Shown: piece after piece, positions 6,295 through 59,419 of the stretch
How positions within the stretch are numbered: position 1 is the stretch's first letter
Layout: every line of letters begins with the position of its first letter
NCBI GenBank assembly: GCA_030704615.1
Contig: CM060733.1
Coordinates: forward strand, 54,250,001 to 54,314,000
Source: Takakia lepidozioides
Lineage: Eukaryota > Plantae > Bryophyta
Direction of reading: 5' to 3'
Length of the DNA stretch: 64,000 nucleotides
Made by a program: the position numbers and the translations under genes
Notes under the pieces: model-generated
The model's input: the letters and a program-made list of their open reading frames with translations, nothing else
Database searches by the model: none
What the model was told of the DNA's origin: nothing

Positions 6295-6759
6295 CTACCC
6301 ATTGACAAGCCAGTCGTACTCATATGCATAGTCCATTGACGGTAAAAACGGATACACGGCTCGATTGTCATCTTCTGTCAGGATATTAAGTATAATGCAT
6401 GCCAAAGTTTTGTGCTCCACCCTCCAACACCTCCAATATGTTGCACAATGGTAGATCAATGTATCGTAAGATCCCCGATGACTGACGTTAGGATTTGTGT
6501 AGTGATACATGCATACAGGGCAGCGTGCATGGGGTCTTATGATGAATTCCCATGCAGCATGGTTCCTCTCAAAAAAAGCAGCCCACCGCCTATGCATGTT
6601 CACCCGATGTGCAAGTGTCTGTGGACCATACCAGTCGAAGGTTCGCGAAACATATTCCAAGACACATGTCTCTCCAACCCCCATGCCTAATGCACATTGC
6701 CTTTCATTCACATAATCCCAAGGATTAAATTCCTCCTCTCCTTCATGTTCAAGTGCCAT
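6295..6759 (-). CDS. Hypothetical 154-aa TE-borne protein with CPVC motif
   Basis: Uninterrupted ATG-to-stop ORF with protein-like composition; no family recognised. Confidence 0.35.
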   Translation of the reverse strand: MALEHEGEEEFNPWDYVNERQCALGMGVGETCVLEYVSRTFDWYGPQTLAHRVNMHRRWAAFFERNHAAWEFIIRPHARCPVCMYHYTNPNVSHRGSYDTLIYHCATYWRCWRVEHKTLACIILNILTEDDNRAVYPFLPSMDYAYEYDWLVNG

Positions 6760-7939
6760 GCAATAAGGGGTTCACTGTATGAATGACCGAGGATAAGAGT
6801 ACGCATCACTATGAGGGACGCCCACTGCCATAAGAACCCAAATGGCACACATGCACCCCAAGTAATCTGAAGCCCCATCATGAGGCAAGGTACTGCTTCT
6901 TCAACCTGAATCTCTCATGGAGTCACCGACGGATGCATCATTCGACATCTCAATGACGATTTGTACATGCTGCCCTTTTACATGTATACGTTGTGTGTCC
7001 TTTCATCCTTCTCATGCACATTCATGCATGACAGATCATGCTGCAAGTTACATGTTGCGGGGAGTTGCGTATGCTCATTCTACAGAGGGGAAGTATTGGA
7101 CTTCCATTGATTTCACATTTCCAAGACTCAGAAGGGCCCAAGAAAACATGAACCCTTACAAAAAAGGTTGCCTCCACCAAGAACACTTCCTCGAAGTATA
7201 GTACAACAGGAAGAGTAAGAAAATGACATTCATGATGAGGAGGAGAGCAAAAACTAGCATCGGTTTTATCGTGGCATCTTGGTGGAAAACGCATTCACCC
7301 GTTTCGGGGATGGGAGTTCTGCCTCTGCGCTTGATTCCTCCGAGTCGTCGGCCTCATCTGCTTGGAACAATCTATCCGCCTCACTATCGAAACTCTTCTC
7401 CGAATCGTCAGACTCCACCACAGGACGTCGGTCGTTGCCTCCCATGGCACTCTCTTGAATCCGAGCACTCCGCCTCTAAAGAGCAAGGTCACGCGGCGGC
7501 CCAACAGGGAGTTGGGAAGGCCCAGCTTCTGCCTCACTCTACACAACACCTTCCGCAACGTCAGTCCCACACAACCTGCACGCTCCTCCTTAGAAAACAA
7601 GGTACTTGCAGCCTTTGGCCCTTCGCTACAAGGCGGGGAATGTTTAAAAAAAAAACTAGGGCAACGCTGCTCCCCTCCACTAATACTTTGCCACATGTTA
7701 GTTTTATCCTAGTCATAGTGAAACTTTCAACTTCAATTTTACTGTAGATTCTACTTCGTACTTGCAGCTGAAGAGGCCCTGGCAGGACTGACGCCCCATG
7801 AACGAAGACTCTTAAAAAACACAAAAGCAAGAGGAGAAAGCATAAAGATTTGACCTTCTTACATTGAAGAAAAAGACTACCTGCATAAAGGAAGGCGAAA
7901 GCGAAAGAATGTAATAAGGGTTTAAGGTGAAAGAGATAC

Positions 7940-22760: not shown

Positions 22761-22789
22761 TATGCGAATAGGACATCCACAAAGAACGG

Positions 22790-29464: not shown

Positions 29465-30500
29465 GTACCCCTTCAACTTATTGGCATTGACTCTTCCCAG
29501 CATCTCTTTGTTAATGGTTTGTAACATGGCTGTGTTGTTATCATATATCTTCTGTATGACATAAGGTCCCTTCCATGGTGATTTAAGCTTAGAAGCTTTA
29601 ATCTTCCCCTTCTTCTGCAACCAGAGAACCAAATCTCCCGTCTTAAAAGTCTTTAATTTGTCTTCATCAAACTGTTCCTTCCTCTTCATCTGAATTCTGG
29701 TCATGTTATTAGCTGCATCAGCATGTACTTCTTCCACATGGTATAATTCATGTTTCCTGACCTTAATTGAATCTTCCAATTTCATTCTCTTTCCCCATTC
29801 CGTTCTCATTGTAGGTAATAAGAATTCCACTAGAAGTAAAGCTTCCATACCATAAACTAATTGGAATGGTGTATACTTAGTGGTGACTTTATATGAAGTC
29901 TTGTATGACCACAAAGGTGTCAGCAGCTTTGTATCCCAATCCGTTCTGTTTGCATTGACTATCTTAGCCAAGATAGTACATAATATTTTGTTGATAGCCC
30001 CTGCCTGCCCATTACCCTGTGGGTAATACGTTGTACTCTTCCTATGCACAATCATGAACTCTTTAGTCAAAAGTTCAATGGTCTCATTAATGAAGTGACT
30101 TCCCTGGTCACTGATAAATTCCAAGGGACAGCCAAATCGTGTAAGTATGTTCTCATACAGGAACCTTGTTGTGGACTTGGCTGTGTTGTCCCTCAGAGCT
30201 TTAGCTTCCACCCACTTCGTAGTATAATCAGTGGCTGTAATTATATACTTGTTCTGTGTATTCTTGGCCGGTGGGTTAATTGTTCCAACAAAGTCTAGTC
30301 CCCATTTCTGAAATGGTTCAGTAGGCATCGTAGGATGCAAAGCCATCTTCCCAGATCTCTGCAAAGGTCCTAGCCTCTGACATTCATCACAACTCTGACA
30401 ATACTTGTGTACATCCTTGAACAAAGTAGGCCACCAGTAACCTGCAAGTAGTATCTTCCTACTGGTAGTCTCTTCTCCAAAATGTCCTCCACTTGGCCTA
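29465..30500 (-). CDS. Gypsy integrase
   Basis: GHFG..YWWP..CDEC zinc motif; WGLDFVG, ISDQGSHF, YPQGNGQA(G) core; WKGPY C-terminal module. Confidence 0.92.
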
Positions 30501-32728
30501 AGTAACATGAAACCAGCCCCATTTACAGTAACAATGGCAGATCAAAGAAGTGTACAGCCATTGGGATTGATAAGAGGAGTTAAGATACAGATTCAAAAGA
30601 TGATCTTTATGATCACAGTAACTGTGTTGAAAATGGATGAAGTCATGGAGGCTTACTCCTTATTATTGGGACGTCCGTGGCTGAAACAGGCCAGGGTATT
30701 CCATGACTGGAATTCCCAGTTACTAACTGTGCATAATGGGATGCACAAGATACAAATTACCACTAAGAAATCTAGTAGATTACCTGCTACGAGAAGACCT
30801 CAAGGGGTCAGGGAGTATGACTGGAGGAGAGGACTGGATGAGGAGTAGGAAGCTACCCTGTTCGCTGCACACCCAGAGTGGGAGCAGGTTGCAAAGATGC
30901 AGCTGGAAGGCCTAAGTTGTTTAAAAGGTATCTGTTGTGGTGTAGTGACAATAACACCAATTGAAGGTGAAACAAGCAGTTACCCACCACATTTCTATGA
31001 AGAAAGAGAATGAGAAATGGAAATCCTAGAGGAACCAGCCACTGTGAGTTTACAAGATGAAGTGGTTACTGGTTGGACAATCACAGCTGATGAGCAGGTG
31101 AGAGAAGTGAATGTGGGAACTGAAGAGGAACCGAGGATGGTGAAGGTAGGGGCTGATTTGGAGCCAGAATTCTTTGAGGAAGCTAAAAGTTTGTTCATCA
31201 AATACAGAGATGTATTTGCTTGGAGCTACGAGTATCTAAAAGGGATACCACCTGAGATATGTCAGCATAAGATTGAACTAGAACCAGGGTCAGTACCAAT
31301 CAAACAGGCAAGGTACAGAATGAATCCCAACTATGCACAGAAGGTTGGAGAAGAGATCAAGAAGTTGGCTGAGGCTAAGTTTATATACCCGATAGAGTAT
31401 ACAACTTGGTTGTCACCCATTGTGATAATTCCCAAGAAGAATGGTAAACTGAGAGTTTGTGTGAACTATAAGAAGTTGAATGCTTGCACGAAGAAAGATC
31501 CTTTCCCTTTGCCATTCACAGAAACGGTGTTGGACACTGTGGCAGGCCATGAGATGTACTCATTCATGGATGGCTTCAGTGGTTATAATCAAGTGCAAGT
31601 GGCAGAAGAAGACCAGGGAAAGACAGCTTTCATCACAGACTGGGGTGCTTATGCATACAAAGTCATGCCTTTTGGACTATATAATGCACCAGCAACCTTT
31701 CAGAGAGTGATAAGTGAATCTTTTCATGAGTATCTGGATGATTTCATGCAGGTGTTCTTGGATGATTTCAGTGTGTACAGCTCTAAGAATGAACACTTGC
31801 ATAAATTGGAGTTATGTTTGGCCAGATGCAGGATGAGAGGTCTGGGCCTGAATCCAGAGAAGTGTACTTTCTGTGTGAACTCAGGGGTGCTTTTGGGACA
31901 CATTGTGTGTAAGAGAGGACTTCTTGTGGATCCCAAGAAGATAGAGGCCATTAAAGCCTCTCCACCACCAGTAAATGTTAAGAGTCTAAGGAGATTCCTT
32001 GGACAAACCAGTTATTATAGAAGATTTGTCAAAAGGTATGCACAGATAGCAGCACCATTAAGCAAGCTTCTGAAGAAAAATGCAGTGTTTGCATGGACAG
32101 TTGAATGTCAACAGGCTTTTGAGGAACTTACATTGTCAGTAACAACTCACTGTGATGCCTCAGGAGAAGCGTTGGGAGCGGTGTTAGATTCACCGGTGTA
32201 CTATGCTAGCAGGTTGATGAACAGTGCTGAAAGGAACTATAGCACAACTGAAAGAGAAGCATTGGCAATGATTTATGCAGTCAAGAAATTCAGGCATTAC
32301 CTATTGGGAAGAAAGTTTATGTTTTATGTGGATCACCAGGCTCTGATATATCTGGTGAACAAACCTTTGATAAGTGGAAGGATAGCAAGGTGGTTAATAA
32401 TCTTGCACGAGTTTGAGTTCGAAGTTGTTTACAAGCCTGGCCGTTTGCATCTTGTGGCAGATCATTTGTCACGCCTAACAACAGGAGAGCCCGCCACAGG
32501 AGTAGACGACCAATTGCCTGATGCGAGTTTATTTGCAATGGAGGTGCAAGGAAGTGCAGATGAATGGTTAGATTGGCAGTGGCCAATCAGATAATACCTT
32601 ACTCATGGTCAGTGCCCACCTAGTTATGGTAAGGAGCAGAGGAAGAGAATCGCTATCAAGGCTTTACCTTATACTATGGTAGGGGGCAGAATGTATAAGC
32701 TAGGACCTGATGGAGTACTTAAACGTTG
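30495..32728 (+). pseudogene. Inverted pol segment: protease C-terminus, RT, RNase H, start of integrase
   Basis: LLLGRPWL; LRVCVNYKKLN, FMDGFSGYNQ, MPFGL.NAPATFQR, VFLDDF; HCDASG, ERNYSTTEREALA, DHQAL, ADHLSR; LYKL-like MYKLGPDGVLKR. Confidence 0.95.
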
Positions 32729-36064: not shown

Positions 36065-36929
36065 GACCTGCAGCTAGTGAATCATGGTTGTGCTTCCCAT
36101 TTGTATTCCTTCTTGCCTTCATGTTATCAATTTACCTTATCTGATACTGAAGCATCAGATTGCTTCAGTATCTTCTTAGTTCCAGTTAATCATGCATTCA
36201 TTTCAGAGCTTCATTCATGTCTCTCTACACAGTGTGCTTGTATCGAATAAGTATCAGTTTACGATTTATCAGGTACTAGGCCAATGTCAAGGTGACTCTA
36301 ATCCGCCCTACAGTATCACTACAGCTCTACATGAAATAAGCATCTATTGTTCATCTTTTCTCCTTCTTTCTGCTCTCGTTCTTGCTCTCCGCCTGATCTC
36401 CTCTCATACATGACCAAGAAGCGCTCCCCGTGAAGTGTATCCCCTCTTTCCGTTGCCGCTCCCTTTATCTGCCCGCAAGCTGTTCTAACCACCTAACTAA
36501 TTAACCGTCATCCCTGAAGTAACACGTTCCTTCTGCAGATGTCGTTCCCTCACAGTCGTTCCCTACCAATGATAATTGTTCCCCATGTACTGTGACTGGC
36601 TGTGTTAGGCTGTGTCGGCTGTGTCGGGCTATATCGGGCTGTGTTGGCTGTGACGGGCTGTGTCGGCTGTGGCGGCTGTGACTGGCTGTGTCGGGCTGTG
36701 TTGGCTGTGACGGGCTGTGCAAAGCTGTGGCGGGTTGTGTTGGCTGTGTCGGGCTGTGTTGGCTGTGACTGGCTGTGACGGGGTGTGTCGGGCTGTGTAA
36801 CCCCCCCCCCCCCCCCCTAAAGCCTGCTGCTGTCACCCCTAAGGCTCCTGTTGGTCTCAGTCTGTGTAATAATTAAGGGTACCCCACAGAACCCGTAAAA
36901 GCGTTAAAGTCCCAAGCAGCCCTCTAACA
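35957..36929 (-). repeat. 5' LTR (~970 bp); PBS at ~35937-35954
   Basis: TGTT..AACA ends; minus strand ..CA-TT-TGGCGACCGTACTGGG is PBS-like (resembles tRNA-Arg primers); internal GGCTGTG repeats at 36590-36800. Confidence 0.8.
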
Positions 36930-38866
36930 GCTTCCAATTAGGGGTTTTTTGACATGGCATGCTGGCCCTATGTGGCTCATTTTGAAATCAAAAAACAGGC
37001 TGAGAGAAGGGCACAAACAGTGTGAAAATCTCAGTGGCTCCCATATTGGCCTTTCTTCTGGCCCTGTGGTCTTTCCTTGGTGCATACAACAATCGAGTGA
37101 GAATTAGCATAAAGGGGAGCAAAATCAGTGTGCTCTGAAGCACACTGTTTGGAGCTCCCAATTAGGGTTTTTTTGACATGGCATAGTTGCCATGTGTGGC
37201 CCATTTAGACATAAAAAAAAATAGGCTGAGATGGCGTCACAAACAGTGTGCGTTGGCGCATACTATTTGATGCTTCCAACTATGGGGTTTTTTGACATGG
37301 CATTCTGGCCCTATGTTGCCCATTTAGACATCAATAAACAAGCATAAAGGGGAGCAGAAACAGTGTGCTTTGAAGCACACTGTTTGGTGCTTCCAATTAG
37401 GGATTTTTTGACATGGCATACTGGCCCTGTGTGGCTCATTTTGAAATCAAAAAACAGGCTGAGTGAAGGGCACAGACAGTGTGTGTTGACGCACACTGTT
37501 TGATGCTTCCAACCATGGGGTTGTTTGACATGGCATTCTGGCACTATTTGGCCCATTTACACATCAAAAAATTAGCATAAAGGGGAGCAAAAATATTGTG
37601 CTTTGAAGACTCTTTGGAGCTCCCAATTAGTGGTTTTATGACATGGCATAGTGGCCTTGTGTGGCGCATCTAGACATCAAAAAACAAGCTGAGATGGCAG
37701 CACAAACAGTGTGCGTTGACGCACACTGTTTGGTGCTTCCCACTATGGGGTTTTTTGACATGGCATTCTGGCCCTGTGTTGCCCATTTGGACATCCATAA
37801 ACAAGCATTAAGGGGAGCTGAAACAGTGTGCTTTGCAGCACACTATTTGGAGCTCCCAATTAGGGGTTTTTTGACATGGCATATTGGCCTTGTGTGGCCC
37901 ATTTAGACATAAAAAAAACAGGCTGAGATGGCGGCACAAACAGTGTGCGTTGACGCACATTGTTTGGTGCTTCCAACTATGGGGTTTTGTGACGTGGCAT
38001 TCTTGCCCTCTGTTGCCCATTTAGACTTCAATAAACAAGCATAAAGGGGAACAAAAACAGTGGGCTTTGAAGCGCACTGTTTGGTGCTCCCAATTAGGGG
38101 TTTTTTTGCCATGGCAAACTGGCCTTGTGTGGCACATTTTGAAATCAAAAAACAGGCTGAGAGAGGGGCAGAAACAGTGTGCGTTGACGCACACTGTTTG
38201 ATGCATTTAAGTATGGGGGTTTTTTGACATGGCATTCAGGCCCCGTGTGGCCCATTTGGACATCCAAAAACAGGCTGAGAGAGGGGCACAAACAGTGTGT
38301 GTTGTCGCACACTGTTTGGTTCTTCCAACTACGGATGTTTTAAACTTTGCACAATGGCCCTGTGTGGCCCATTAAGACATGAAGAAACAACTAGAAAGGG
38401 GGGCACAAACAGTGTGCGTTGACTCACACTGTTTGATGCTTCCAACGATGGGGTGTTTTGACATGGCAAACTGGCCTTGTGTGGCCCATTTAGACATGAA
38501 AAAACAACCCAGAAAGGGGGGCCCAAAGAGTGTGCGTTGACGCACACTGTTTGGTGCTTCCAACTCTGGGGTTTTTTGACATGGCCTTCTGGCTCTATTT
38601 GGCCCATTTGGACATCCAAAAACAGGCTGAGAGAGGGGCAGAAACAGTGTGGCACACTGTCTGTTCAGAAACAGTGTGGCCCTGTGTGGCCCATTTGGAC
38701 ATGAAAAAACAACTAGAAGGGGGGTACAAACAGTGTGCGTTGACGCACACTGTTTGGTGCTTCCAACTATAGGGTTTTTTGACATGGCATTTTGGCCCTA
38801 TGTGGCCCATTTAGACATCAATAAACAAGCATAAAGGGGAGCACAAACAGTTTGCTTTGAAGCACA
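36930..38866 (+). repeat. Second block of the ~117-bp satellite (~16 units)
   Basis: Same unit and orientation as 22790-25035; ~80-bp foreign insert at ~37024-37103. Confidence 0.97.
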
Positions 38867-40673
38867 TGCCTCTTCCATTGGAGTCAATATCTGGCACATC
38901 ATACAAAGCGTTGCATTCGACCTGACCTCCAGTTGGAACACAGAAGGCTCTGCCTCCAGTACAAAATTGCCACCTGAATGGGAGAAGCTGAGAGCACTTA
39001 CCAAGCAATCCGGGCTTGGTGGTTCTCCTCTGGTGCTGCTATTGGGATCCACCTATAGGAGTTGGAGGACTGGTTGGTTTTCTGGCACTTCACGTACAGA
39101 CAGTGGGGAGCTTTCATGACGTCGGTAAACCTTTTCAATTCGAGAAACACAAATTTCACTTTGCATCGTGTCTGTTCCTTTGGGGTTCTTGGATTGTCAC
39201 TTGTAGAACCTCTTCCATTTCCTTTCATTTCTCACATTTGCGTGCAATGCCTCCTGCAGGACATGTCCTTGGAGGACTTGGCCGACATGCCTTCCTATAA
39301 TGTGGCAGAGACTGTTCACAACGCCTGGATGCAGCAGTCTACCAAAGCAGGACGTGACTTATATGTGGCCACTGCAGATGACATCGTGCGGGCACTTATA
39401 CAACAAACCAGATACCGCAATTTTTCTGATGGGACGGGGATGAGGCAAGGGCCCTGATACGACTTTGTTGATGCTAAGGGCTGCGAGTAGGACCGGAGAC
39501 CTATCAAAGATGGCGAGAGCTCTGAACAGGTGCACTGAAGGCTCCCATTTGCAATCCAGGGTCCCCCATTTGGAAGACGAGGAAACATTTGTATCATGTA
39601 AAAGGAAATTGAAAGCTCCTCCAGGGTCGGATGGAGATTCCCATCGGCCGGACTGGGTCAATTTCTCTGTACCAAAGGTGTCTCCGGTGTACACTAAGTC
39701 CCCTGCCCGCCCCTTCCCAGGTGTGTCCTCTTCCAGTGGAGCAGGTGCAGATCATGCAAGCACAGCAGCAGGAATCCCATTGGAGGATGTGGTGTCCTTG
39801 GTGCATGAATCTGATTGCATTGACAGTGAGTGGCATATAGAATGCACCCCACCAGGATCTAGAGTGGCTTGCATGGCAATTCGGACCCCCTCTTTCAAGA
39901 AATGCAAATCAAAAATATACAAAGGCTCCAGGGGGACTCCAACTCCAACATTCACAGGGTTGTTCCGACCTTATCATAGTGGGGAGTCAAAGAACCACAA
40001 GTTCTGGTTCTGCCCAGACGATATGGTACGATGCGTCAAGGGAACAGTTCGTCCTTCGGTGATAATGAAGCCCCCTCAGCCCGCAATTTGGCCTATGAAA
40101 CTTGGGACTTCGCTGTCATCAACCGAGATAAGCATGCTGGAGGAGGGAGGGTTCCGTCTTGCACGGTCCCTGGTGGTGCCCTCATGCACTCTGGGCACAG
40201 ATGTGCCACATGCTCCGGCTATGCCTCCACCCGGTGCCGACTCCCACCCAACTAAAAGAGATGGAAAAACAGTGCGCCATGTCGCTTCGGGTGCAGATCA
40301 CGACTGCAAGATGGAATCGGCTAGAACTTTGCAGGCTCGGGTGACTCGTATCATCGAAGTCCCGGCCTCGGGGTATGGACGGATTTACACAGTGTTGTCT
40401 GCTGGCTCAGTTCTTCATGGCAAAGAATATCAGGTTACCATGGGGAATTTCCCTTCGTGCACTTGTCCGGATTTTGTAACGATGCGTGAGGGCGCTCTCG
40501 GCATGAGAGGGAAGTGGGTCCCCTGCAAGCATCAATATTACATATACCTTATAATTATGTGTTGCAACGGTAAAAAAGACCAATTCATTCACCAAGCCAC
40601 ACTAGGCTATGGAGAAGTCATCACTCTTCTGCAGCGGGACACCTGCCGTGGGGCTCTGCTAGATTCTATGTGA
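38867..40673 (+). pseudogene. Second MULE-type transposase, C-terminal half with SWIM zinc finger
   Basis: CLFHW (CxxH) at 38867; intron ~39121-39259; PSYNVAETVHN (catalytic E region); YQVTMGNFPSCTCPDF..VPCKHQYY (SWIM); internal stops. Confidence 0.8.
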
Positions 40674-45458: not shown

Positions 45459-46640
45459 TCATTTTGTGAATGAATTCAGGAACTTGTAGTTCCACAGAAC
45501 GGTGGTGCCTACCATGTCACCCAAAGTGACCTCACTATCAGAAGCCTTGGTGTTGCAAGAAGGTATAATGTGCGTTGGCTCAATAGCATTTTCAACTTGA
45601 ACACTATAGTACCCATCTGGCAACGAGCCCACTTTGCCATAAACCCCAACAATCTTGCCCCAACCAACAACCAGACCTGCTTTCTTAAAGCTGCGCAAAT
45701 AGACCTTGTATCCTTTCTTTAAACTGCATGCCAACACACTAGCAGTTCAATATCGACAGTTCAGACTTCAAATCAAACCAAAGATGAAACGAACAGTCTA
45801 GTCTCCGCAATACTTACTTGCAATAAAACCACAATGTTCGAAAACTGCAAACATCAAGGAAAGATCAAATTACCGCTGCGGGTGGGGCACTCTCAGCCCA
45901 AGCAGCACTGGCATGTCCTCGAGTTGCAGGCCGGTTGGTTGTTGGCCGTGCATCACACAGTTCCTTGCATTGTAAGTCAGACCTCTGCCTCCAAAAAAAT
46001 ACGTACCCATGAGTCAGACCGCATGGAACAAAGCGCAAAAATGCTACCGTTCACATCAACCCCCTTTATAGCCACCAAGGCTCTCAGTGCTGCAACCATC
46101 TAGGCTAATGTCATCAGTTGTCATCACCTGCCATGAGCTCCAACAAAGGCAACCAACATACCTTTCCGTTGTTTCAAGCCAACATTAAGAGAGGAATGCG
46201 TTGAGGTAATAAATTGATCGATAGGAAGAAATATTACCTCTTGTTCTGAATGGTGTACTTTGCCAGGTGAGGAATGTTTGCTCTCCATACTGTGGGTGCC
46301 CTCTGGAGTGGGGACATCTTCACCACCATCAGACGGCAGCTGCTGGGCTCTGCCACCTATTTTCCTCTTTGCACCCCCCCCCACCCTTACCCTTTCCCCC
46401 CTGACAACTCTCCCCTTGTGCAACATGACCTTCCAAAGCAGTTGCAGATGAGGAAAGGTTCAGAGTCTGCCCTGCTTTCAACTTCACCGGGACCCCACCT
46501 CTTCTTTTACCTTTTTCCTTAGCTCCTCCCTTCACCCTCTTGTTGTTGTCCATCTCTCCGACATTTTCCTCATATTGTGAACTAGAATCTTTGGATTTAC
46601 TGGGATCATCAGACGTTGTATGTGTCCCACCAGGCGTTGC
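45459..46640 (-). pseudogene. CACTA TnpA-like C-terminal part (Tnp1/Transposase_23-type)
   Basis: KVYLRS..VVGWGKIVG..LPDGYYSVQVE..IP..VTLGDMVGTTVLWN in the last exon; upstream low-complexity exons. Confidence 0.7.
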
Positions 46641-46993
46641 GCGTGCCATGTCGTGCGCATACATATCGCTACACAACTACATCGCTGTCCAAACCACACC
46701 ACACATATATGCACAATAAAGTAGTCTGCCACAATCGCCCCCCTAGCTGGTGGATAGGTCCCTCTACCTCCAGATAGCTACAAGATGAAATAGCCACAAC
46801 CGTACTAAGTCCTCTATCACTGTCCCTATTGTACTCAAACTCTATAGACCAAGAGGCCGGGTACAAGAGTAGCCCCATCGTTAGTCGCCGTCTTGCAATC
46901 TGTGAACTTGAGCCAGGATCTCGTGTGTTCAAGGTCTCCTAGTAGCTGGGCCTTGGGTTTCTTGTTAGCCTTCCATGGTTGTATCCACTCCCA

Positions 46994-48076
46994 CTATCCA
47001 ATGCAATGTGGACATAACCAATCCCCATCTGGAACCATCTCAAGAGGTGGAGTCAAGCATCCCATATGCCAACCTCTAGAGCATCGATCACACACCAGCA
47101 TGGTGGCTGCCCCTTTAGCAGACCCACACAACATGCACCTCAAACCTGCAGATACCACTGCCAGGTTTGGGTCAATCCTGCCATCGACATTCGGAAGGTG
47201 ACATGGCGCACAATTACGCACATGGTCCTTCCAAGTTATGCCATCCCGACCCTCCAAGACCAAGACGCCTGAGGGCAAGACCTCTCGAATCCTCAAAATA
47301 ACACATCCTGCAGTCACATCCAGGGTCGTAGGAGCAGTCTGCTGCAGATAGACATAGTCAACAGGGTTGAATCTCCGAACCCCAGGACGATAGCCCCACC
47401 ACGTATGGTAGCATACCTCAACGTATCACGGTGTTGTGCAATGGCAAGGTTCTCAAAAGCCATGGGCATGACTCTCTTGAACAACTCTGCACGCTGCTCA
47501 CATGCACGTGCCCACACGTCCGGATCGTCAAGGTTAAGAACTGTAGCAGCTTCTCTGCGAATGGATGTAGGCAAATCCGGCTCTCGGCCAAAGAGAAGAA
47601 AGTATGGTGAGAAGGAGGCAAGTGATGCTTGCTTGCTGAACCTGTAGCCCATGGCTAACCAGGGTAACTGAAGGTCCCAATCTCCTAGGTGTCCCTTCTG
47701 CAAGCCATACTTGCGCAAACCCCTCTTTACTGTCTGAACAACTCTCTCTGCCAAGCCATCGGCCTCAGGATGATCCCGAGAAGTGGTGCGGTGGTCTATC
47801 AAGGCCTTGTCACACAAAGCCTGAAACTCCCCCAAGAACTCTTTCCCTTGGTCCGTGAGTACCTCAGCTGGAGCACCGAATCGGCTAAGCACACACCAGG
47901 AACGCATACGCAGCTCCCTCACTAGCCTTATCAGGCAATGGAACCAATTCAATCCACTTGGAGAAGTGCTCCACCATCACCAACACGTACTTGTTGTGGC
48001 GCATGGTCAGTGGCAACGGCCCTGCGAAGTCAAGACTGCACCTGTAGCCCAATCCCATGATCGGAAGAGGGTGCAA
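46994..48076 (-). pseudogene. Integrase core with C-terminal PHD finger
   Basis: SLDFAGP, VLTDQGKEF, ADGLAERVV (DDE); CMLC..MLVCDRCSRGWHMGCLTPPL..VPDGDWLCPHC (C4HC3); frameshifts. Confidence 0.93.
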
Positions 48077-48400
48077 GTGTCACGGACATTTGTGCTTTGA
48101 GTGCTGGTGTTGTAATTCTCCAAGAACTCCCTGCACAGCTCGTCATGCTTAAGGTTCCAGTCCAGCATGGTGATGAAGTATCGCAGGCCAAGACTATCCA
48201 ATGTCTCCCGTGTCTCTGTGTCTTGCTCGATCTTCTGCAACGCCGGGCTGATTTTGAGATTCACTTACACATAAGAACTTGGTGCCTTCCGTTTGGTGCC
48301 TGCCATTTTCCTTAGTTTTGCAGTTGCTGTAAGGAATTGGAGCACCAATTCCTGTATCACAAGCAGTATAAAGCACACTGGAAGTTGTGTAGACAACAAT
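48077..48400 (-). pseudogene. Foreign fragment homologous to the 3' extra ORF of the other Gypsy element
   Basis: LDSLGLRYFITMLDWNLKHDELCREFLENYNTSTQSTNVRD aligns with LRELRLEGLLRKDWSLHHRQFMIQFLHNFEPRTGVTQVRG (~28400-28280). Confidence 0.6.
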
Positions 48401-48409
48401 TTCCAGTTT

Positions 48410-48828
48410 GCGGAAGAGAAGGTGACGAGTAGGACCCTGAGGCCAGCAATGAGCAAGGTGGCACCAAAGATATACATGAGGATTCAGTTGTGTTGGACTA
48501 CCTTCGCACTGGAGACACGGCAGCCACTGTGACTGCCAAGGAGAGGGATCGGATCCTACAACGAGCCAAGAGGTTCAAGTGGGAGGGGACACACCTGCTC
48601 CGAGTGTGGGAGGATGGTCGAGTGAGGATTGTGCCTCACCCAACACAGCGGGCACGGTTAGTGCGCCATGCCCATGAGGAGTTGGGGCATTTTGGGGTGC
48701 GACGCACTCATAGTCTACTGCAAGGGCAGTATTGGTGGCGTGGTATGCACACAGAGGTGCAACAATTTGTGGCTAGGTGCATGGTGTATGACAGGGTGCG
48801 TGCTTCATTCAACGCCCCTACTCCACAC
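48410..48828 (+). pseudogene. Inverted integrase N-terminal zinc-binding segment
   Basis: LVRHAHEELGHFGVRRT..YWWRGM..FVARCMV(Y)DR..FNAPTPH; logically continues into LHPLPIMG at 48076 on the opposite strand. Confidence 0.9.
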
Positions 48829-49087
48829 ATCACTTGTAGCAGAGTTAGAATGCTAGGCTTCTCTTCACTTTAGCTTTATGCATATTAGGCAGTAGTCGTG
48901 CCATCTGAAACATGTTGTGATAATTGGGGGACAGGATGCGGGACCTATGGCTCATCTAGTGCGCCCACACTCGTACATTAAGGTGTCTCCATTTCTCAAT
49001 CTTGAGGGTTGTATGAATCTCATTTTTCTCTAGGCTTTGTCCTTCAATGGCTAGTTGAGGTCATCCATCAGGGGTAGCATGTATCAT

Positions 49088-49152
49088 CTGTTTGATGCTT
49101 CCAACCATGGGGTTGTTTGACATGGCATTCTGGCACTATTTGGCCCATTTAG
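49088..49152 (+). repeat. Orphan partial unit of the 117-bp satellite
   Basis: CTGTTTGATGCTTCCAACCATGGGGTTGTTTGACATGGCATTCTGGCACTATTTGGCCCATTTA, near-identical to 24267-24330. Confidence 0.92.
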
Positions 49153-49685
49153 ATGAGCCCGTGACCCCACTGCAGCTGCATCCAGCAACACTGCTGACCC
49201 AAGCCACGACCGGACTTGATGCACACTGGCCATCACCCTGGCCCGAGAATCACCCATCAGTGGCACATTCTCCAAGATGTATGCCGGAGATACAGCCTGA
49301 TGAAGCTGCAAGTGGCGCAAAATCCGCACCATCTCCCAAAACAGACCCATCTTCGAGTCTCGCAATCCATTGCCATGCCCAGCTGATGAATGCCCTTGGC
49401 AGGGCCAACCTGCCACTACCAGATCAATGGAGCCAACCCGCTCCAAATCCTGCGCCCCCAGCAACGCAATGTCTGCTGGCAAGGCCTGCTGATATCCACG
49501 AACTGCAGACACCGGCAACAACTCAGGGTGCTGCTGCACCATCTGAGCAACATGGCGCAGTGAGACGCATCGTGCAGTCTCATCCCTCTCCACATACAGG
49601 TAACGTCGAACTCGTACACCTGCCTGCAGCACTGCAGCCAATCCAGTGCTGATCCCGCCAATAAGTCCAGAAGGCATATGCCTTC
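49153..49685 (-). pseudogene. DNMT3-like DNA (cytosine-5) methyltransferase domain, truncated
   Basis: Motif I LLDL(F)GGISTG (1-bp frameshift ~49661), II YLYVERD, III DI, IV IDLVVAGWPCQG, LFWEMVRIL, VI YILENV, VIII start LLDAAAVGSRAH. Confidence 0.93.
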
Positions 49686-52634
49686 ATCCGGCCGCTGCCA
49701 CACAAGAGGTGTGGTGTCCAATGGCAACAACTGAGGTTTCCCTGGTGCAATCACCGCACTCTCCTCCTCTCCTGACGGTACAAAAGCTTCTAACCAAGCT
49801 TGTTGCACCCGTCTATCAGCAGCTTGCTGCAAATCCTTGCTCGTACCCCGCAATGGAGTGTGAGCAGCCATGGCAGACAACTCCACCGTACCATGCATGT
49901 CATCCTGCTCTGCTGGAGGTGGCACATCCTCTACATGGGCATTGCCTTCCAGCAACTCTCCAGGCCAACTAACTGCAGCTGTGAAGGCAGCTAGTGTTGG
50001 TATCTTGCCCCGCTGGGCAGCTGCAATACCCCCAATGAATGTCACAGGGAGCTGTGCACGGCGACCATCCCCTGACTGCCATCCAGGCCTGTAGAATGCT
50101 GACTCCTCCCAGAAGTCCAGGGTGAAGCCCATGGGGTATAACACTGCTCCACTAACGAGGACATCGTAAGAGACCGCGTCTGTCACAATGGCTTTGGCTC
50201 GCATCACTGAGCCATCTACAGGATGATCCGGCTGCAGTCTAATAGCCAACTGATGCCGTGTCATGCCCCGCGCCTGCTCTAATCCTCCCAGAGATGTCTG
50301 TATCTGGAAAGGACAAGGCTCCATATCCGCCTCCATGAGGCCCAAACCTGCAATAGCAGCTCTGCCCAACATCAGTGGCTGGGCTCCCGAGTCCAACAAG
50401 ACCCGCAGTGGCCGGTACTTCTTGCCTGCCGGTCCACTCAAAGTGAAAATGCCTCCCTGGTTGTCTAACAAGACAATTCCAGGTGTCACCGTGGCGCGCT
50501 CAAAGGCTGGCCTAGCTGGCAGCTCCGTCAATCTGGCAGCTGCAGCTTGCCAGGGTGTTGCCGTGGCAGTCTTGACCCTCAAATCCGAGGATCCCTCTGC
50601 CACTACACCTTCCACTAACTCCGCAGAAGATGAAGTGACCTCCCCACTCTCACAGAGTGTTGCCGCTAGTCTGAACACTGCAGCTGGTCTCACTCCCGGC
50701 GTCGCAATCATGGTTGCCGAGAACAGTGGGGCTTGACACACAGAGGTGGCTGCCCCCAACAACACACCGGCTGCACTAGCCTTGGTGGCAGGTGTCAGTG
50801 CTGCACGTGTAGCTCTCCCCAATGGCATAGTAATGTCCGCCTCGGTAACAGTCGGGCGAGAACTAGGTGCCATGGATGGCGTTGACACTGTCTCCGCCAA
50901 GGTGAACGACTGAGGCAGCCTTGCCTGACGGCTTGCCTCCCCACGTTGTGGATCCAACTCCACCTCTGCACCTCGTGGCTCAGGAACTCGTGCTGCTCCT
51001 CGAGTCACGGCTGCAGCAGACTCCACCTGCTCTAGTGGTAGTGCTGCTCCGCACATGAATCCCATGCCTCCCATATCTCCTCCCTCAGGAGCAGGAGGTG
51101 GACCATCCCGCCTGGGAGCCGGTACCGCCTGAGCTATAGCCATGGCAGTGAGCCTCTGCTCTAGCTGCTGAAGCCGATTGGCCATGCCTTGGTCAACACC
51201 CTGACCTCCGCGTCCTTGGCCATGTGGAGCTTGCCCTTGGCCTGCACCTCGTGCCCGACCACCTCGTCCTCTTTGGGCTGGTCCACCTCGCCCCCGGCCA
51301 CCATTGTTCCCTTGGAACTGGCCTGGGCGCAACTCAGGATGCAAGTCATAACATTGGGCATCTCCATGCCCATACTTGCCACAATGCCCACACTGCAACT
51401 GTGCAGGCTGTGCTTGTGCCGGCCTTTTGCCACTCTCTGGGCAATCTCTCTTGACATGGGGTCCTCCACATGTCCAACATATCACCCCTGGTTGCTGTTG
51501 GCCTGCAAAAGATGACACGGGCCTCTGCACCTGAGGTCCCCTGTAAGCTCCATGGAACTTGGGCTGGACAACCTTGCCCCCCTGACCACGCTGTTGGGCA
51601 GTCCCTTGTGCCTGTGGGCTGACAGCTGTGCCCCGTACAGGCATGTCCTTGCCAAATCCAATTGTAACAACTCGCTCCTCCACCATGTTGAGCTCAATCC
51701 GCTCAGCCAGCAGAAACACATCTGCTAATGTGGGTTGGGCTGCTTGTAACAGGGTTGCATCTCGCACCCTTCTCTTGAGCTCCTTGTCCAGAATTCCATA
51801 CCAAAACTGGATTGCCTGAGCTTCAGTAACCCCTTGGGTCACACTTATCAAGCGCCTCATACGAGTGTACGCCTCTCGCAGGCTCTCACTGGGTTTGCGC
51901 TGGAAGTCTTGCAAACTTCGCAGCTTCTCTGTCCGTACACCTTGGTAGTTCCTCCGCAACTCCTGGAAGAACTCCACCACCGGGTTGAATCTAAGCACAT
52001 GTGTTGTAGTCGTGGCAGGAGGAGTAGTAGCACCTTTTGAACTGGTACCACCTGCAGAAGTACCAGCACTACTTGCTCCACTACTAGTGTTGGCAGTGGG
52101 AGCTATTGGTACTGATGCAGCTACTGGTCGCGTCGTGCCTCGAGTAATGGAGACGTAGTCAGGTGACCAATACATCCTCCACTCCTCAATCTCTGCTTCA
52201 TGTCCTCGCCTGAACTCGTGGTAATCGTCCATAGGCGGGCCTTCCAAATGCTGGAACAGTCCCTTCCACGCCATGAATGGGGTGAATAGCTGTGGATTGC
52301 GCATCTACTGCAAATCACACCAGCTGTCGAACTCCTGGATAAAGTCATCCAACTCGATTGTGCCCACAGCTCTAGAGTACCTACGAGGTTCCTTGGTAGC
52401 TCCATACATCTCCTCCATGTCGTCCCACAACAATGGCGAATGAAAGTGCACACCTGTTGATGAAGCCTCCGAGTCTGTGTTTGACTCTACAGTAATTGAG
52501 GGTGGCGGTGAAGGTGGTCTGAACCGAATACCTCGTCTTGTGAACCCACTCTCACTGTTACTACCTGTAGCCGTACTCCCCTCAAAACCCTTGGGTAACT
52601 CCGTAATGACACTCACAATGTGCACCTCCTCCAC
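49685..52634 (-). pseudogene. Gypsy gag-protease leading into the MTase
   Basis: LQDFQRKPSESLREAYTRM capsid motif, knuckles CWTCGGPHVKRDC and CGHCGKYGHGDAQC, protease LLDSGA..YDVLVSG; one in-frame TAG at 52305-52307. Confidence 0.92.
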
Positions 52635-53153
52635 GTGACACTATAAGGCTCTAGTACTAATCTAAGAGTGACACGGGTGGGCACCTGTTGCAGTTTAAGG
52701 GTCATATCCCAATGGCTCAGGGCACCTGCACCTGCATCCACCGCAAGAACTCCTATGGTTGGCTGGTCATCAACCCAGCCTCACCATAGAAGAAACACTG
52801 GTGGTCTTGCTGGTCATCACTCCAGCCTCACCACCGACAGCATACTCTAGGATTGACCGGTGATCAAATCCGGCCTAATCCCTATGAAAGCAAGCGCCCA
52901 CACAAAACCAACATGGCGCACAGTCAAGCATGCAGGTGTTGGGGGGGATCCAAACACAAGAAATCAAAACATCAACACCCCCACACCAAAATCCAGCTGC
53001 AATGCTGATCCTGCAGAATAGCCCAGCCCAAAACCCTGGACTGACTGGCCTCCACCAAGAGAGGCTTTGGCAACTACAAGTACAAGGTAATGAAAATAGT
53101 ACAGAGATGGAGGGGAAGAATAGAAGCCCGACCAAGCAAGATCTAATCCTGAT

Positions 53154-53903
53154 CTATGCTATCAACTGCCAGACTTCTCTCAAAGTCCCTCGCTCTGCAT
53201 GATGGTAAGGTGTAGGAGGTATATCTATGTCCAAAAACCTGCCACTAACCTTGTCCCAAGCTACAGTAGCTCGCTCTAACCAACCCTCCTCCTCTTTCTG
53301 CCAGGTAGAGACAAAGCAATACTCCCCTATCTCCCGCTCACTGAACACTAAAGAAAACAAAGGTAGGGTCTGATAGTCTCTCAACTCGAAAGCTTTGAGA
53401 CGGTTGCGGGTGTCCTCATTGCAAATGACTGCATCTCCTTCACGCACAACAAACATGTCATTGCTGATGAACCCCCGCTCGTGGTTGCCCTGTGCAGAGC
53501 GTATCCGGCTGCAACCATGTCTGATTGCACAAACCTGTGTAGCTCCTGCTCCTCTGCTCCAGTACACCACGGCCTTGTGGCTAAACACCTTGGTCCCCGG
53601 GGCTGTCTTTGGCTGTGTTCCAAGCCTAACTTTCACCCACTTTGGTATTTCACCTACAGCTGCAGAACTGCTGGCTCCAACAGAGTTCTGACTATCCAAG
53701 GCGATATTGAGGCCCTCAATGCCAACTACAGCAGTCTGTTGTCTACTGCTAATGCCTGACTCCCAGTATGCAATCAACTCGTCCAACTGTTCTCCACTCA
53801 AATCAGTCTGAGTTCCTTGGGAAACATAAATCTTGTCCCCTTGTGTGCACAGACTAAGAGAAGAGACCTGCCCTTCAATTACGTCCTCATTTCCCCCAGC
53901 CAT
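53154..53903 (-). CDS. Extra ORF (249 aa) upstream of gag in the MTase element
   Basis: Intact ATG-to-stop ORF between PBS and gag; family not recognised. Confidence 0.55.
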   Translation of the reverse strand: MAGGNEDVIEGQVSSLSLCTQGDKIYVSQGTQTDLSGEQLDELIAYWESGISSRQQTAVVGIEGLNIALDSQNSVGASSSAAVGEIPKWVKVRLGTQPKTAPGTKVFSHKAVVYWSRGAGATQVCAIRHGCSRIRSAQGNHERGFISNDMFVVREGDAVICNEDTRNRLKAFELRDYQTLPLFSLVFSEREIGEYCFVSTWQKEEEGWLERATVAWDKVSGRFLDIDIPPTPYHHAERGTLREVWQLIA

Positions 53904-54664
53904 GCAAGGAGTACATCCACCAATTTGTCTCTCATACAGACCAGCACAGGTTCTAGAAACAGAATTGTGGATCTTTCATGGCACACTCACACTCTAAAAA
54001 TTCCATAGATTTTTAGCAGAGTCCTAAAAACAAAAACCAGGTCTAGATTGGTAGATTTCCCCTTTCTGCAGCTATCCCCTCAAAAACTGGGTCAAACAGA
54101 GTCCATTTGACAAAGATATGACCAGCCAGGCTATTTAAACATAACATTTTTCTTTTTTTTTAATAATAAATTTTTAACACCAAAACGTTCTCGCCATTAC
54201 AACCTGTTCCCAGGTTATCTACGGGTTCCCGAGGCCGTTCCCCCCCACAGGACCTCGCCAGTGAGATTCATAGTCCCTTGGGAGGCATTGAACAGTCTTT
54301 AACCAGCCAAGGGATAGATCCGGCACGGACTGTCAACTCAGCCTCTTCAGTGTAGGTGATTAGAGGATCTGTTGTAGCTGTCATGGAGGTGACAGAGGAG
54401 ACTCAAGGAGCAGATGGAGTAAAAGAACAGGTGAGTGTATCACAAGCATCTGCAGATGGCGTGGTTATGGACTCTCACCATCAGTTTGACCATTCTGGAA
54501 GTTCTGGGGGTTCTCTAAGGGATGCAGCGCTCCACTCTCAAGTGCCTGTGGTAGACACTGTATCAGAGGTGTATTCGCCTCCCAGCATAAACACACAGGG
54601 CTTTCTTGCTAGCGACACAAGGACAAGCACGGCACCCACAACATCCGCAAGGCTTGATCTTATA

Positions 54665-54790
54665 GCTCCTTGAGTGATCTTTCCGCTTTGGCAATGTGCC
54701 CAGGATACCACTGGACAAGTCTCGTAGACTTGGTAAGGTAGTCTATGTCACCATCCAAACTTTCCCACTTCTTCTGTACTTCCGCAATAG
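54665..54790 (-). pseudogene. Captured fragment of RbgA/YlqF-family (DAR) GTPase
   Basis: LDGDIDYLTKSTRLVQWYPGHIAKAERSLKE; QWYPGH is the family's N-terminal signature. Confidence 0.85.
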
Positions 54791-55459
54791 CTGCCACAGC
54801 TCTCACCACCGTTGTGGGCTGAGGCCGGGACGCGATGGAAAGGGGAGCATGAGAAGATCGCCACGCTTGCAACCCTATTGTTGGTTCCTGAGGCCCAAAT
54901 ACCTAAGTATGGATGGCACTACACACAGCCCAGTGACCTGCGCTTCAAGCTGGCCCCCTTAATGAGACCGGACTCCCCAATGGTGCAGCACGGACGACAT
55001 GCGATTCAGGACGTGTATAACTAGATAACTGTAAGTCTTCTTGCGGGCCTGACCCTCAAACCACATGAGCTGCTACTTCTCTTCCTGCAAACCACTACTT
55101 TGGAGTGCATCTGCCGCTCTGCAGCAGCCCCCGACATCGAGTTGCCTAACACTGCAACCCAGCTCGCAATTTACCGCTACGTTCTGGGCAGACAATCTCT
55201 TCAGGATGCAGTTTGTGGACAGTGTATCTCCGATGGCATTCACCTCTCAGAGAAACGCCGTCTCTGGATTGATTCACCTCCCCTGCCTTGCGCTGGCTCC
55301 CGCTCCCTCACAAGCGAGTGTTGATCTTGAAGACGTCTCTCCCGAAACAGAGAGGCCCCACATGACTTGTACACCTGATTATTCCCTACTTCCTGCTCAA
55401 GCGGCCACAAATTCGGTTATGGCTTGCAGGGTTTGGTTGCTGTCGCAGCATCCTCGTCA

Positions 55460-55855
<396 letters not shown>

Positions 55856-58604
55856 TCAAACTCACGCGCAGAGACGACACTAAATCTGCGCGCACAGCCC
55901 ATGGCAACAGCAGGGCCAGATGGACTCCTGCCCCAAAATATATATTATAATAGTGCTAAAAACAAACATTGTATCTAGCTTAGCACCAGCACACTAGATA
56001 ACGCTCATCTTTCTCGAGTGATAAGAAAACTAGAAAACACACTGCTCACACCAGAAACAACATGAATCCATCGCTATCACCCTTTAAAACAGAAGTCGAG
56101 CCAGGGGCACCCCAAGCTATGAGGACTCTACCCCACAACAACCTACACTCCCATCATAAGCACACTCAAATCTAAACGCATGAAGGAGCTCGGTCGCGCA
56201 GGCTCAACTCGAGAAAGATGAGCCGCGCGACTGCCGCTCTCGTGAAGATAAGACGGACCAGGTGTCAAACTAAACTTGACACCTGATTTAACACTTGACC
56301 TAAATCCAAGTGTTAAATACAAATAACTAGTTTTATTCTAGCTGTTTTCACACTGTGCTTATTTAACTTGACACTATAAATAAACTCTTAACCCCTTGTT
56401 TCCATGACTTCCAACCTCCCAGCACTCAAACATCGAGGAGAACAAGAACAGCTGCTACTCTGGGTGATGCGCCATTCATGATGAAGCCAAAACTAAATCC
56501 ACACGTTTCCCCCCTTCAGCTGCAGCTCGTGTTCAATCACGACAACAATAGGATACCTATTCAGCTCCTAGTCAGTCATTACAAGCAGCCACAACAACTA
56601 AATATCAAAATGACACAAACAGCTACTACACCTAATGGAAACCCATCTTTAAGGAACCAAAAGAAAGCGTACGGATTAATTTCCCCTACTTCAGTTCATG
56701 GTTAATTGCTGCAGAGGTCTGAGCCTTTTCACCAAGCATATAACAGCGTCCACAAAATCATTGACCTAACGTGGAGATGCTACAAGTTAGTGACTGACAA
56801 AATACCCAAAGACATGTACTAGACATCAGGGGCCAGCAGTTACACCCCAATGAGCATCATCACCAGATACCTCAAACAGCTACTAGCTCCGTGTTTAATT
56901 ACCATATCTCCAGCACCAACATTCCAAATGGTAGCCTCCTCCCCACAGTCTTCAATCACATCATCTCCATCCAGCCTCCTTCATCTCCACTCTCTCTCTT
57001 CCATATTCCCCAAGCCACTACCAGGAAAAAATAAAAGGTGCTCCAAGCATGAAGCCCCAAACCTGAGTTATAAGTTAGATAGTCTTATCTTTGCACTTCG
57101 AGTCTCCGAGTATCCTTTGGGAGTTGTCAACACTGCAGTTAAGGCCTGAATGGATGGGCTTCATTCGCTTTCTTTCCCCTGTGACATGCACCACAACTAC
57201 GTGGACAACAACGTGTGCTTGCGAAGGGGGAATGGGTTTCCTTGGAGAGGGCCAGGGAGAGGAGCCCAGCTTTCATTCAAACGATTAAGGAGTGTTGTAC
57301 CTACACCGATGCTAGAGATCTGGATTTGTCAATGGGCACAGGTTCGTCTCTTCAACATTCACATTTGATCGGGTTTGTTTGAGCTTGCACTTTCAGCACT
57401 TCCCACCATTCCAAATGAGTCTTCAATGTTTGTTTCCTTCCTTCTATTCCATTGCAGGTGCTTCGTACCACGCTTGTAAAGCCAGTGTGCGACATCTCTT
57501 CGGGATTGAAGGGGATGTTGAAATTTACAAGAACCTCCCGATGGGTTTGGGAGGACACACTTCTCAAGTCCTTCTGAAGCCCTTCCCGGTGATATTGATA
57601 CAGGGGAGACGTTCGACAAGGAGCTGGACTCCGACTTTGCCTGTGAGTAAGTTCAAGTTGTGGATGCTTGCATTCTTGTTTCAATACCCATAATCACTGT
57701 TCTTAAGGCAAAGTGCACATGGGAGACATCCTCTTCATTGGACTTGTGCATTGCATCATTGTATTCAAAATGGGTTTTTGTTGACTTGTGCAGGAGTCCG
57801 TGTGCTTCCACTGACCCTCCAGGGCTATCACACCTTTTTGGACTTCTTTCAAGTCCTCCTCAGTCTTACATGCTACCCGTCTATGTGGAGGCACTCGCAG
57901 CAAGCATGTCTATTCATGGCACTCGCAGTTCAACCATTGACAGCCGTGGTAGAAGACGTGGTGTTGGGGCCGGAATCTTTGTGGATGACATAGGACATGA
58001 GGTCGATTCTGATTCTGATGACTGTAACACTTGATATCAAGTTTTCTCTTACTTTTGTTCGAGGCCAATTTTGAAATGGGATGGTTGTGTGTCCTTATTG
58101 TCCTGTTTGCAATGTATGCGCGGGATGCAAATTCCTGGGAACAAACTATCGTTGGAGATGGGAAGCGCAATGTCTTTTCAAACGTATTCGTGTTCTTCTC
58201 AACCCAAGCTTCCTCATCAAATCTCGTTTCTTACGTGCGGTACGGTGGGGGTTCCACGAAGTACATTCTTCTTCAGGGAGTCTACCTCCTTGGATCAGAG
58301 GAGCGCAAATCTGCTGCTTCCGCACGTCCTGTGTTATGCCTCGACTACGTCTTTCCTGCAACAGAGAACCAGTTCAAGACCCCAGACGCACACGTCCTGA
58401 CAACTCTTTTCAAGAAGCCCTTGGAACTCGTGCTGCATGGCACAAAAATTGAGCTCAGTGATAGACAAACGTCTTTGGTTTGGGCAGAGCATTCTCGCAT
58501 CATTTGCTCGTTGGTCTCCAAACCATTCCTGCCAGAAGAATGCTTAGTAAATCCATCACGTTAAAGTCTACGTGATCAAAGATCGTTCAGGCATTCTTCT
58601 GGCC

Positions 58605-59153: not shown

Positions 59154-59419
59154 CCACCAACGGGCAGACTGAGCTTGGGCAGACCCGATGGCGGGCGGAC
59201 CCAGCGGCAAGGGCGGGCGGGCTGGGCAGCGTGTAGGGAGGGCCGCGGGCGGCTGCAAGGCTGCCGACCGCAATGCGCGGCTGGCAGGTGGGGGTGTGCG
59301 GGGCGGGGCGGGGGAGGACGACCCCGCGTCGGTGCGCGCCCTATCCCACACGTGCGAACTCCCAATTATTCAAAAATGAGAGCCCATCTCAAAATTGAAA
59401 TGGCCATTTCAATACTGAA
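59154..59419 (-). repeat. Right terminal inverted repeat
   Basis: Reverse complement of 304-578, with indels. Confidence 0.9.

Follow-up and report, generated by a model that had tools for sequence, protein, structure and literature searches.

Architecture of the element

The stretch analysed here, 64,000 nt of Takakia lepidozioides (assembly GCA_030704615.1, contig CM060733.1, positions 54,250,001 to 54,314,000 of the forward strand; hereafter the window), carries a dead and rearranged copy of a retrotransposon family that is almost certainly of Gypsy type, with a DNMT3-like cytosine methyltransferase (MTase) and an integrase ending in a PHD finger. Coordinates are positions in the window, and the element is read on the minus strand. 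A first-pass annotation had placed such an element at 46640..54350. The element is present there, but its 3' end lies at 46649, the stretch 54240-54350 is low-copy sequence that does not belong to the family, and the 5' repeat lies outside the range, at 56019-56373. From 5' to 3' the following parts were recognized:

56019-56373, minus: repeat A, the 5' end of the family, 355 bp, TG...CA (high depth, contig joins)
56208-56223, minus: 16-nt stretch of A, complement of the primer site (16/16), likely the transcript start
56003-56018, minus: predicted self-priming primer-binding site directly after A (no TGG start)
54240-55870, no strand: low-copy insert in the leader, not family sequence (depth drops several hundred-fold)
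53157-53903, minus: 249-codon open frame in the high-copy leader (list of open reading frames)
51300-52418, minus: gag with two zinc-knuckle-like motifs and an in-frame stop at 52305-52307 (weak Retrotrans_gag match, E 0.004)
50061-50450, minus: aspartic protease, LLDSGAQ (weak Pfam match, E 0.009; 50-60% identity to related loci)
49153-49689, minus: N-terminal part of the DNMT3-like C5 methyltransferase, motifs I to the start of VIII (Pfam, homologs)
48828-49153, plus: foreign patch at the break; its last part, 49088-49153, is a 66-bp satellite piece (contigs, self-comparison)
48433-48827, plus: inverted RNase H-integrase linker and H2C2 zinc-binding domain (PF17921, E 1.4e-15; match to residues 1134-1190 of relative P0010)
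47141-48077, minus: integrase core and C-terminal part, with two frame breaks near 47894 and 47393 (Pfam, homologs)
46994-47140, minus: C4HC3 PHD finger (46997-47140) and stop codon (PF00628, E 1.6e-11)
46738-46748, minus: polypurine-tract-like G run directly before repeat B (same run before B in 14/14 related loci printed)
46649-46735, minus: repeat B, 87 bp, ending in CA, the 3' end of the copy (loose contig ends, likeness to B ends of relatives)

Repeat A is likely the promoter part of U3 together with R and U5. The leader frame had no Pfam match, no homolog among 409 candidates (lengths 136-436) and no tblastn match in 81 loci. CG depletion was equal in the element (0.46-0.49) and the window (0.47) and is uninformative.

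The methyltransferase domain

The gag-protease frame runs into the C5-MTase as the first-pass annotation had described, including the frame break in motif I. From 52418 to ~49660 the frame contains a single stop and matches a Marchantia protein with 48% identity across 947 columns; near 49660, inside motif I, it is broken and the MTase goes on in another frame, with 74% identity to the same Marchantia protein up to 49153. Motifs I, II, IV, VI and the start of VIII are all present as annotated, with the sequences DLVVAGWPCQG, YILENV and DAAAVGSRAH, and the domain matched PF00145 with E 1.7e-12 and 47.8 bits (cut-off 22).

Solved structures were compared with a relative that has a complete MTase domain (P0001, ~315 residues, 76% identical to the window piece) and with a profile (A2). 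The best solved relatives were DNMT3A (E 1e-26), followed by DNMT3B/C, DRM (1e-12 to 3e-16), and bacterial enzymes and DNMT2 (1e-8 or weaker). With the P0001 model (pLDDT 90.1), DNMT3A/B/C stood alone among the matches listed, the best being DNMT3A with a TM score of 0.84. The motif order is unpermuted, and DNMT3 is nearest by both sequence and fold, in agreement with the resemblance noted earlier. The catalytic Cys and the ENV motif are invariant in 16 close relatives. The ratio of nonsynonymous to synonymous substitution rates (dN/dS), a check proposed with the first-pass annotation, was 0.11-0.19 in 28 of 29 pairs between the window MTase and related loci, with one pair saturated and dS at 1.4-2.1. 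By this codon comparison the domain is under purifying selection, and the enzyme is probably active in live copies. In 61 of the 201 relatives in which the catalytic motif was read, it is GWECQ instead of GWPCQ, the Pro of the PC motif being replaced by Glu.

The methyltransferase belongs to a retrotransposon family

A search with the MTase piece returned 70 proteins among 7,995 candidates. Named organisms among them were Marchantia polymorpha (17), Calypogeia (3), Sphagnum, Closterium, Klebsormidium and Haematococcus (1 each), and none of the 70 was named from a vascular plant. A wider MTase search gave 1,710 clusters, and 29 long relatives from the best 150 of these were scanned: reverse transcriptase (RT) or RNase H was present in 22 of them and integrase alone in 3, and in 12 the MTase occurred together with a PHD finger. 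MTase and RT lie in one protein in Marchantia P0010 and P0019 and in Klebsormidium P0068. A host plant DNMT3 gene was also considered for the window MTase. Host DNMT3s of non-flowering streptophytes carry DUF3444, according to the portion of PMC6453930 consulted; such a multi-exon gene with a C-terminal DUF3444 was rejected on indirect grounds, as the MTase runs on into RT and the relatives are intronless. DUF3444 was listed for none of the 70 homologs or the 29 long relatives.

In metagenome contigs 132 MTase stretches were confirmed and 80 loci kept, not all of them independent (shared flanks in L050/L052, L060/L070, L038/L063/L064 and L023/L028). Of the 57 loci with room for it, 48 have RT downstream of the MTase; the figure is 37/41 for RNase H, 24/31 for the integrase core and 18/23 for the PHD finger, and gag lay upstream in 39/45. 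The linkage of MTase and pol in other copies, by which the first-pass annotation could be judged, is thus present and in a fixed order. All nine parts from gag to PHD stood in order in 10/80 loci, and L002 has a single frame from gag through integrase, interrupted by two stops. The pol order protease-RT-RNase H-integrase is present in relatives, and the window copy is without RT and RNase H. Among viral contigs, 154 pattern matches yielded one weak locus, without element domains.

Trees were made with FastTree and midpoint rooting, with few outgroups and no host DNMT3 among the sequences; the MTase tree comprised 106 sequences after near-duplicates and short pieces were left out. The window MTase and the loci formed one clade with the proteins of Marchantia, Calypogeia and Sphagnum (support 0.998), five of the six loci placed grouping with the Sphagnum protein. 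The integrase half of the window copy grouped with the integrases of seven MTase-bearing loci (0.992).

The MTase occupies two sites in pol, before RT in 21/229 proteins and after RNase H in 30/229. The second architecture, RT-RNase H-MTase-integrase-PHD (P0069, P0111 and related proteins, named from the chlorophyte genera Haematococcus and Scenedesmus), has its own branch in the MTase tree. Elements with the MTase before RT, including those of Klebsormidium and Closterium, group in the integrase tree (0.953), and in the RT-RNase H tree Klebsormidium joins the chlorophyte-type architecture (1.0), both with few outgroups.

Two further observations concern relatives of the family. The same MTase clade occurs in a Copia-type protein of Closterium (P0163) and beside a Dam domain in P0188, pointing to exchange among classes of retrotransposon. 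Beside MTase-bearing copies lies a sister family whose integrase is related, at L047:14580-16439 (with a PHD finger) and L034:1-2034.

Integrase and PHD finger

The H2C2 and core integrase domains were identified by Pfam in the window, and no recombinase appeared in Pfam scans of the window, relatives and loci. An element of the DIRS/PAT type with a tyrosine recombinase was rejected on these grounds. The C4HC3 PHD finger at the end of the integrase, also part of the first-pass annotation, was upheld. Its closest solved relatives are the fingers of CHD4, PHF12, KDM5B, KDM5A, ATXR5, DPF3, PHF21A, BAZ2, UHRF1 and AIRE. Fingers of that kind (KDM5A/B, PHF21A, CHD4, BAZ2, UHRF1, AIRE and others) read unmodified H3 tails.

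Split repeats, priming and target duplications

No paired long terminal repeats (LTRs) were found within the element range of the window, which led us to a split-repeat reading. The form A-coding-B-A-B is complete in L019, L062 and L070, and the B-A join was also seen in L011, L022 and L064. In these related loci A1 and A2 are 88-92% identical, B1 and B2 89-94%; the last bases of B are CA and the first of A are TG, with two bases in between (GC in 4/6). Among the 14 loci with a G run before B, 6 run on into A, 7 into flank, and 1 ends. In contigs from other copies in the organism of the window, the end at 46649 is joined to 56373 through the same two bases, and this join identifies 56019-56373 as repeat A; at the nucleotide level this repeat had no meaningful match to the related loci (best E 0.7). 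A perfect 4-bp target duplication was found in 5 of 8 loci with both ends, and one with a single mismatch in 2 of 8; L062, whose 5' end was not readable, did not enter this test.

A tRNA primer site would begin with TGG. No such start follows A in any of 19 loci or in the window. Instead, the 16 nt directly after A in the window copy are the exact complement (16/16) of 56208-56223 inside A. In 15 of 19 related loci the best complement is found at position 161-163 of A, ~25 nt past a TATA-like box. The primer sites of the window and of the moss type have just 6/16 letters in common, so that the pairing is kept and not the sequence. From these complements, self-priming in place of a tRNA primer is predicted. 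Two full paired LTRs with a tRNA primer site were not found, split repeats being present instead; the family is Gypsy-like by its proteins and not a canonical LTR element.

Abundance, decay and rearrangement of the window copy

The element belongs to an abundant family. Summed contig depth, which is not a copy number, was 158,000 to 1,170,000 over 46505-54123 in run X1, which may be the source sample, compared with 329 to 7,722 in flanking bins; in run X5 it was 125 to 1,536 in the element and 2 to 31 in flanking bins. Sharp loose contig ends at 46649 were seen in 3/4 runs. Contigs in 3/4 runs also join 48827 to 48077 on opposite strands, from which it follows that other copies lack the inversion.

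Comparison with homologs confirmed the view that this copy is dead, with the MTase cut at ~49153 and RT/RNase H missing. MTase similarity stops at 49153 and is followed by a 66-bp piece of the 117-bp satellite of the window, 49088-49151 being identical (100%) to the satellite stretch 24267-24330. No RT or RNase H was found between the MTase part and the integrase part. The satellite (117/233 bp, with short internal hairpins) forms two arrays, at 22788-25071 and 36879-38896.

The low-copy insert contains a fragment of a host monodehydroascorbate reductase (55661-55855, minus; 65 residues), closest among 57 matches to those of Calypogeia fissa (85%) and Riccia fluitans (87%); taken alone, this short piece would point, weakly, to a liverwort host. 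The whole of 54240-55870 is a patchwork with short host-gene pieces, among them this fragment and segments where contigs from runs X6 and X7 depart from the window at the borders, and it may consist of captured mRNA pieces. No support was obtained for a suspected likeness of 54675-54872 to an RbgA-type GTPase. Elsewhere in the window, another Gypsy-type element at 29609-32699 is ~30% identical to the MTase-PHD family and has RT/RNase H and integrase on opposite strands (plus and minus, respectively), pointing to a second inversion or to two elements. An inverted repeat pair (387-539 and 59182-59344, 58.6 kb apart) is 74-91% complementary.

Proposed replication cycle and alternatives

We favor, with reasonable though not high confidence, the reading that the window holds a dead Gypsy-type copy from a family whose MTase is likely to methylate the cDNA of its own element inside the particle and whose PHD finger is likely to hold the integrase to unmodified H3 tails. 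The RNA would start inside A and prime itself at the site after A, and plus-strand synthesis would start at the G run before B, which would make B-nn-A the LTR obtained by reverse transcription. Joining of the cDNA ends would then give a circle, to be opened by the integrase at the internal CA-nn-TG site; opening of a two-LTR circle would give A-coding-B-A-B and opening of a one-LTR circle A-coding-B. The MTase would be packaged as part of pol and then methylate the cDNA. Two parts of this scheme are more tentative: we hold it only nearly probable that cDNA is the main MTase substrate, and integration by circle opening is a good possibility that falls slightly short of being expected. De Mendoza et al. 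likewise read cDNA methylation for the DIRS case, in the part of PMC5890265 consulted.

A number of results weigh against this scheme. The first-pass annotation had proposed a search for intact gag-to-PHD copies with paired LTRs; the order was found, with split repeats, but an uninterrupted gag-pol frame was present in none of the 15 loci checked. Among 27 closely related loci the median dN/dS was 0.64 (351 pairs), as expected for decayed copies. In the window copy no target duplication pairs A (56019-56373) with the 3' end, and the host-derived low-copy insert parts A from the rest. A primer-site complement of at least 13/16 was found in only 9/19 loci and one of 16/16 in 3, two of which are one site, while shuffled sequences gave 11-14. 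The residue before the first Cys of the PHD finger is Gly in the bryophyte fingers, whereas it is acidic in 5/7 algal-type ones; an acidic residue at this position is a contact for unmethylated K4, and its absence makes the mark read by the bryophyte finger uncertain. The form A-B-A-coding-B, also expected from a free two-LTR circle, occurred at 0/21 5' A starts. L038 and L064 have a flank in common, yet one ends in B and the other in B-A-B, so that single-B forms can come from collapse or recombination. These last two results argue against circle opening in its simplest version. Finally, KnitGypsy-Dnmt3 of Klebsormidium nitens gave no methylation in yeast, a result its authors called inconclusive in the part of PMC5890265 consulted.

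Other roles for the MTase can be set against methylation of cDNA. It might travel with the integration complex and methylate the DNA of the host where the element inserts, the PHD finger directing it in the way that the ADD domain guides DNMT3A. The kinship of the finger with readers of unmodified H3 tails (KDM5A/B, PHF21A, CHD4, BAZ2, UHRF1, AIRE) and the co-occurrence of MTase and PHD in long relatives speak for this; yet the MTase sits at two different pol sites, away from the PHD end, it is probably cleaved off by the protease, and PHD fingers are also found in Chlamydomonas elements for which no MTase is reported. We regard methylation of the target site as unlikely. It is less likely still that the domain was kept for a purpose unrelated to methylating DNA, be it binding or methylation of the element RNA or a structural role in the particle. 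The yeast result and the replacement of the catalytic-motif Pro by Glu in many relatives would fit such a role. The invariant Cys and ENV motif argue against it, as do a fold and profile much nearer DNMT3 than the tRNA enzyme DNMT2, and the CG methylation shown, in the consulted part of PMC5890265, for the DNMT3 domains of Symbiodinium DIRS elements.

For the repeats, the form observed could instead have arisen from linear cDNA with an extra terminal repeat trimmed at CA-nn-TG, or from later recombination between repeats. The missing A-B-A-coding-B form and the two endings at the one L038/L064 site favor this, but the A-B join is exact in L019, L062 and L070 (the end of A directly meets the bases that follow the G run) and the permuted form has target duplications on its two sides; we judge such an origin a real possibility, if on balance improbable. 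That MTase piece and PHD integrase are unrelated neighbors brought together by local rearrangement could draw on the foreign patches and the inversion that part the halves and on the lack of a target duplication in the window. At the family level it is refuted by the fixed order in relatives, and for this copy it is scarcely credible, both halves grouping with the same family and having similarly high depth; at most, two copies of one family supplied a half each.

With circle opening and cDNA methylation by the packaged MTase as the preferred reading, a broader picture can be drawn, which for the present is doubtful. It would be that of an old green-plant Gypsy-like lineage, abundant in liverworts and mosses, that primes itself without tRNA, whose DDE integrase opens a DNA circle at a palindrome within the LTR, and which carries its own de novo MTase and H3-tail reader, so that new copies arrive methylated.

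Comparison with known elements

The first-pass annotation mentioned MTase-bearing retrotransposons from Symbiodinium and Klebsormidium and none characterized in land plants. The algal cases are described in PMC5890265, of which we consulted a part, while proteins of Marchantia, Calypogeia and Sphagnum turned out to be close relatives of the window MTase. KnitGypsy-Dnmt3, as presented there, has an intronless Dnmt3-like domain in Gypsy pol, DIRS-like split repeats and purifying selection, and shares the intronless domain, split repeats, conserved catalytic residues and purifying selection with the bryophyte family. The order protease-MTase-RT-RNase H-integrase of Klebsormidium P0068 is that of the bryophyte relatives, with 47% identity to the window in the MTase and 62% in the integrase core. 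KnitGypsy-Dnmt3 comes from an alga, whereas the family described here is found in bryophytes, and in the MTase and RT trees Klebsormidium does not stand next to the bryophyte clade. The PHD finger, the target duplications and the predicted self-priming of the bryophyte family are unmentioned for KnitGypsy-Dnmt3 in the article text and three supplement files that were term-searched, and the text searched had 0 matches for PHD and for Marchantia. SymbioDIRS-Dnmt3 of Symbiodinium, from the same partly consulted paper, also has a DNMT3 domain in pol and the form A-coding-B-A-B, and was shown to methylate CG in yeast; it uses a tyrosine recombinase, unlike the bryophyte family with its DDE-type integrase and 4-bp duplications.

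Other elements share single traits, as far as the portions of the sources consulted go. EpiLTRs (bioRxiv 10.64898/2026.05.21.726589) are likewise LTR retrotransposons with a cytosine methyltransferase and a chromatin reader, but differ in having a chromodomain as reader, an added adenine methyltransferase and a DNMT4-related enzyme, and occur in Cymbomonas and Euglena. Some Gypsy elements of Chlamydomonas, for instance Gypsy-7a_cRei (bioRxiv 10.1101/2022.06.16.496473) have, as here, a PHD finger in a green-lineage Gypsy polyprotein; unlike in the bryophyte family, the domain list given for elements of this type contains no methyltransferase. Elements of the Tcn1/Tf1 type (PMC6317226) also lack a tRNA primer site, with self-priming predicted for plant Tcn1, but are chromoviruses with ordinary paired LTRs, and the text of that survey had no match for PHD, methyltransferase or methylase. 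The main text of PMC12344493 reports retrotransposon DNMT3s in streptophytes, bryophytes being unnamed in the part consulted. Term searches of PMC11982613, PMC12885004, PMC9033089 and bioRxiv 10.1101/2021.02.12.428880 found no mention of such elements, and a literature search, with Repbase reports, most subscription papers and preprint supplements outside its scope, returned no paper on bryophyte DNMT-bearing Gypsy elements. For elements of the KnitGypsy-Dnmt3 type, the literature searched describes neither bryophyte copies nor a PHD finger nor self-priming; PHD fingers in transposons, the element type itself and the pairing of writer and reader in LTR elements are known.

Significance

Methylase-encoding transposons have been regarded as absent from land plants such as tracheophytes, and a hypothesis was built on their loss (PMC6338049, consulted in part). 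The bryophyte copies narrow this loss to vascular plants at most. Such elements are likely overlooked by programs that look for paired LTRs and miscounted as host DNMT genes. Their split-repeat ends and target duplications suggest an integrase acting on a circle junction, a route of integration that has been rejected for retroviruses. With 17 of the 70 matches in Marchantia polymorpha, the question of what a transposon gains from carrying a silencing enzyme becomes approachable in a model plant with genetics and methylomes.

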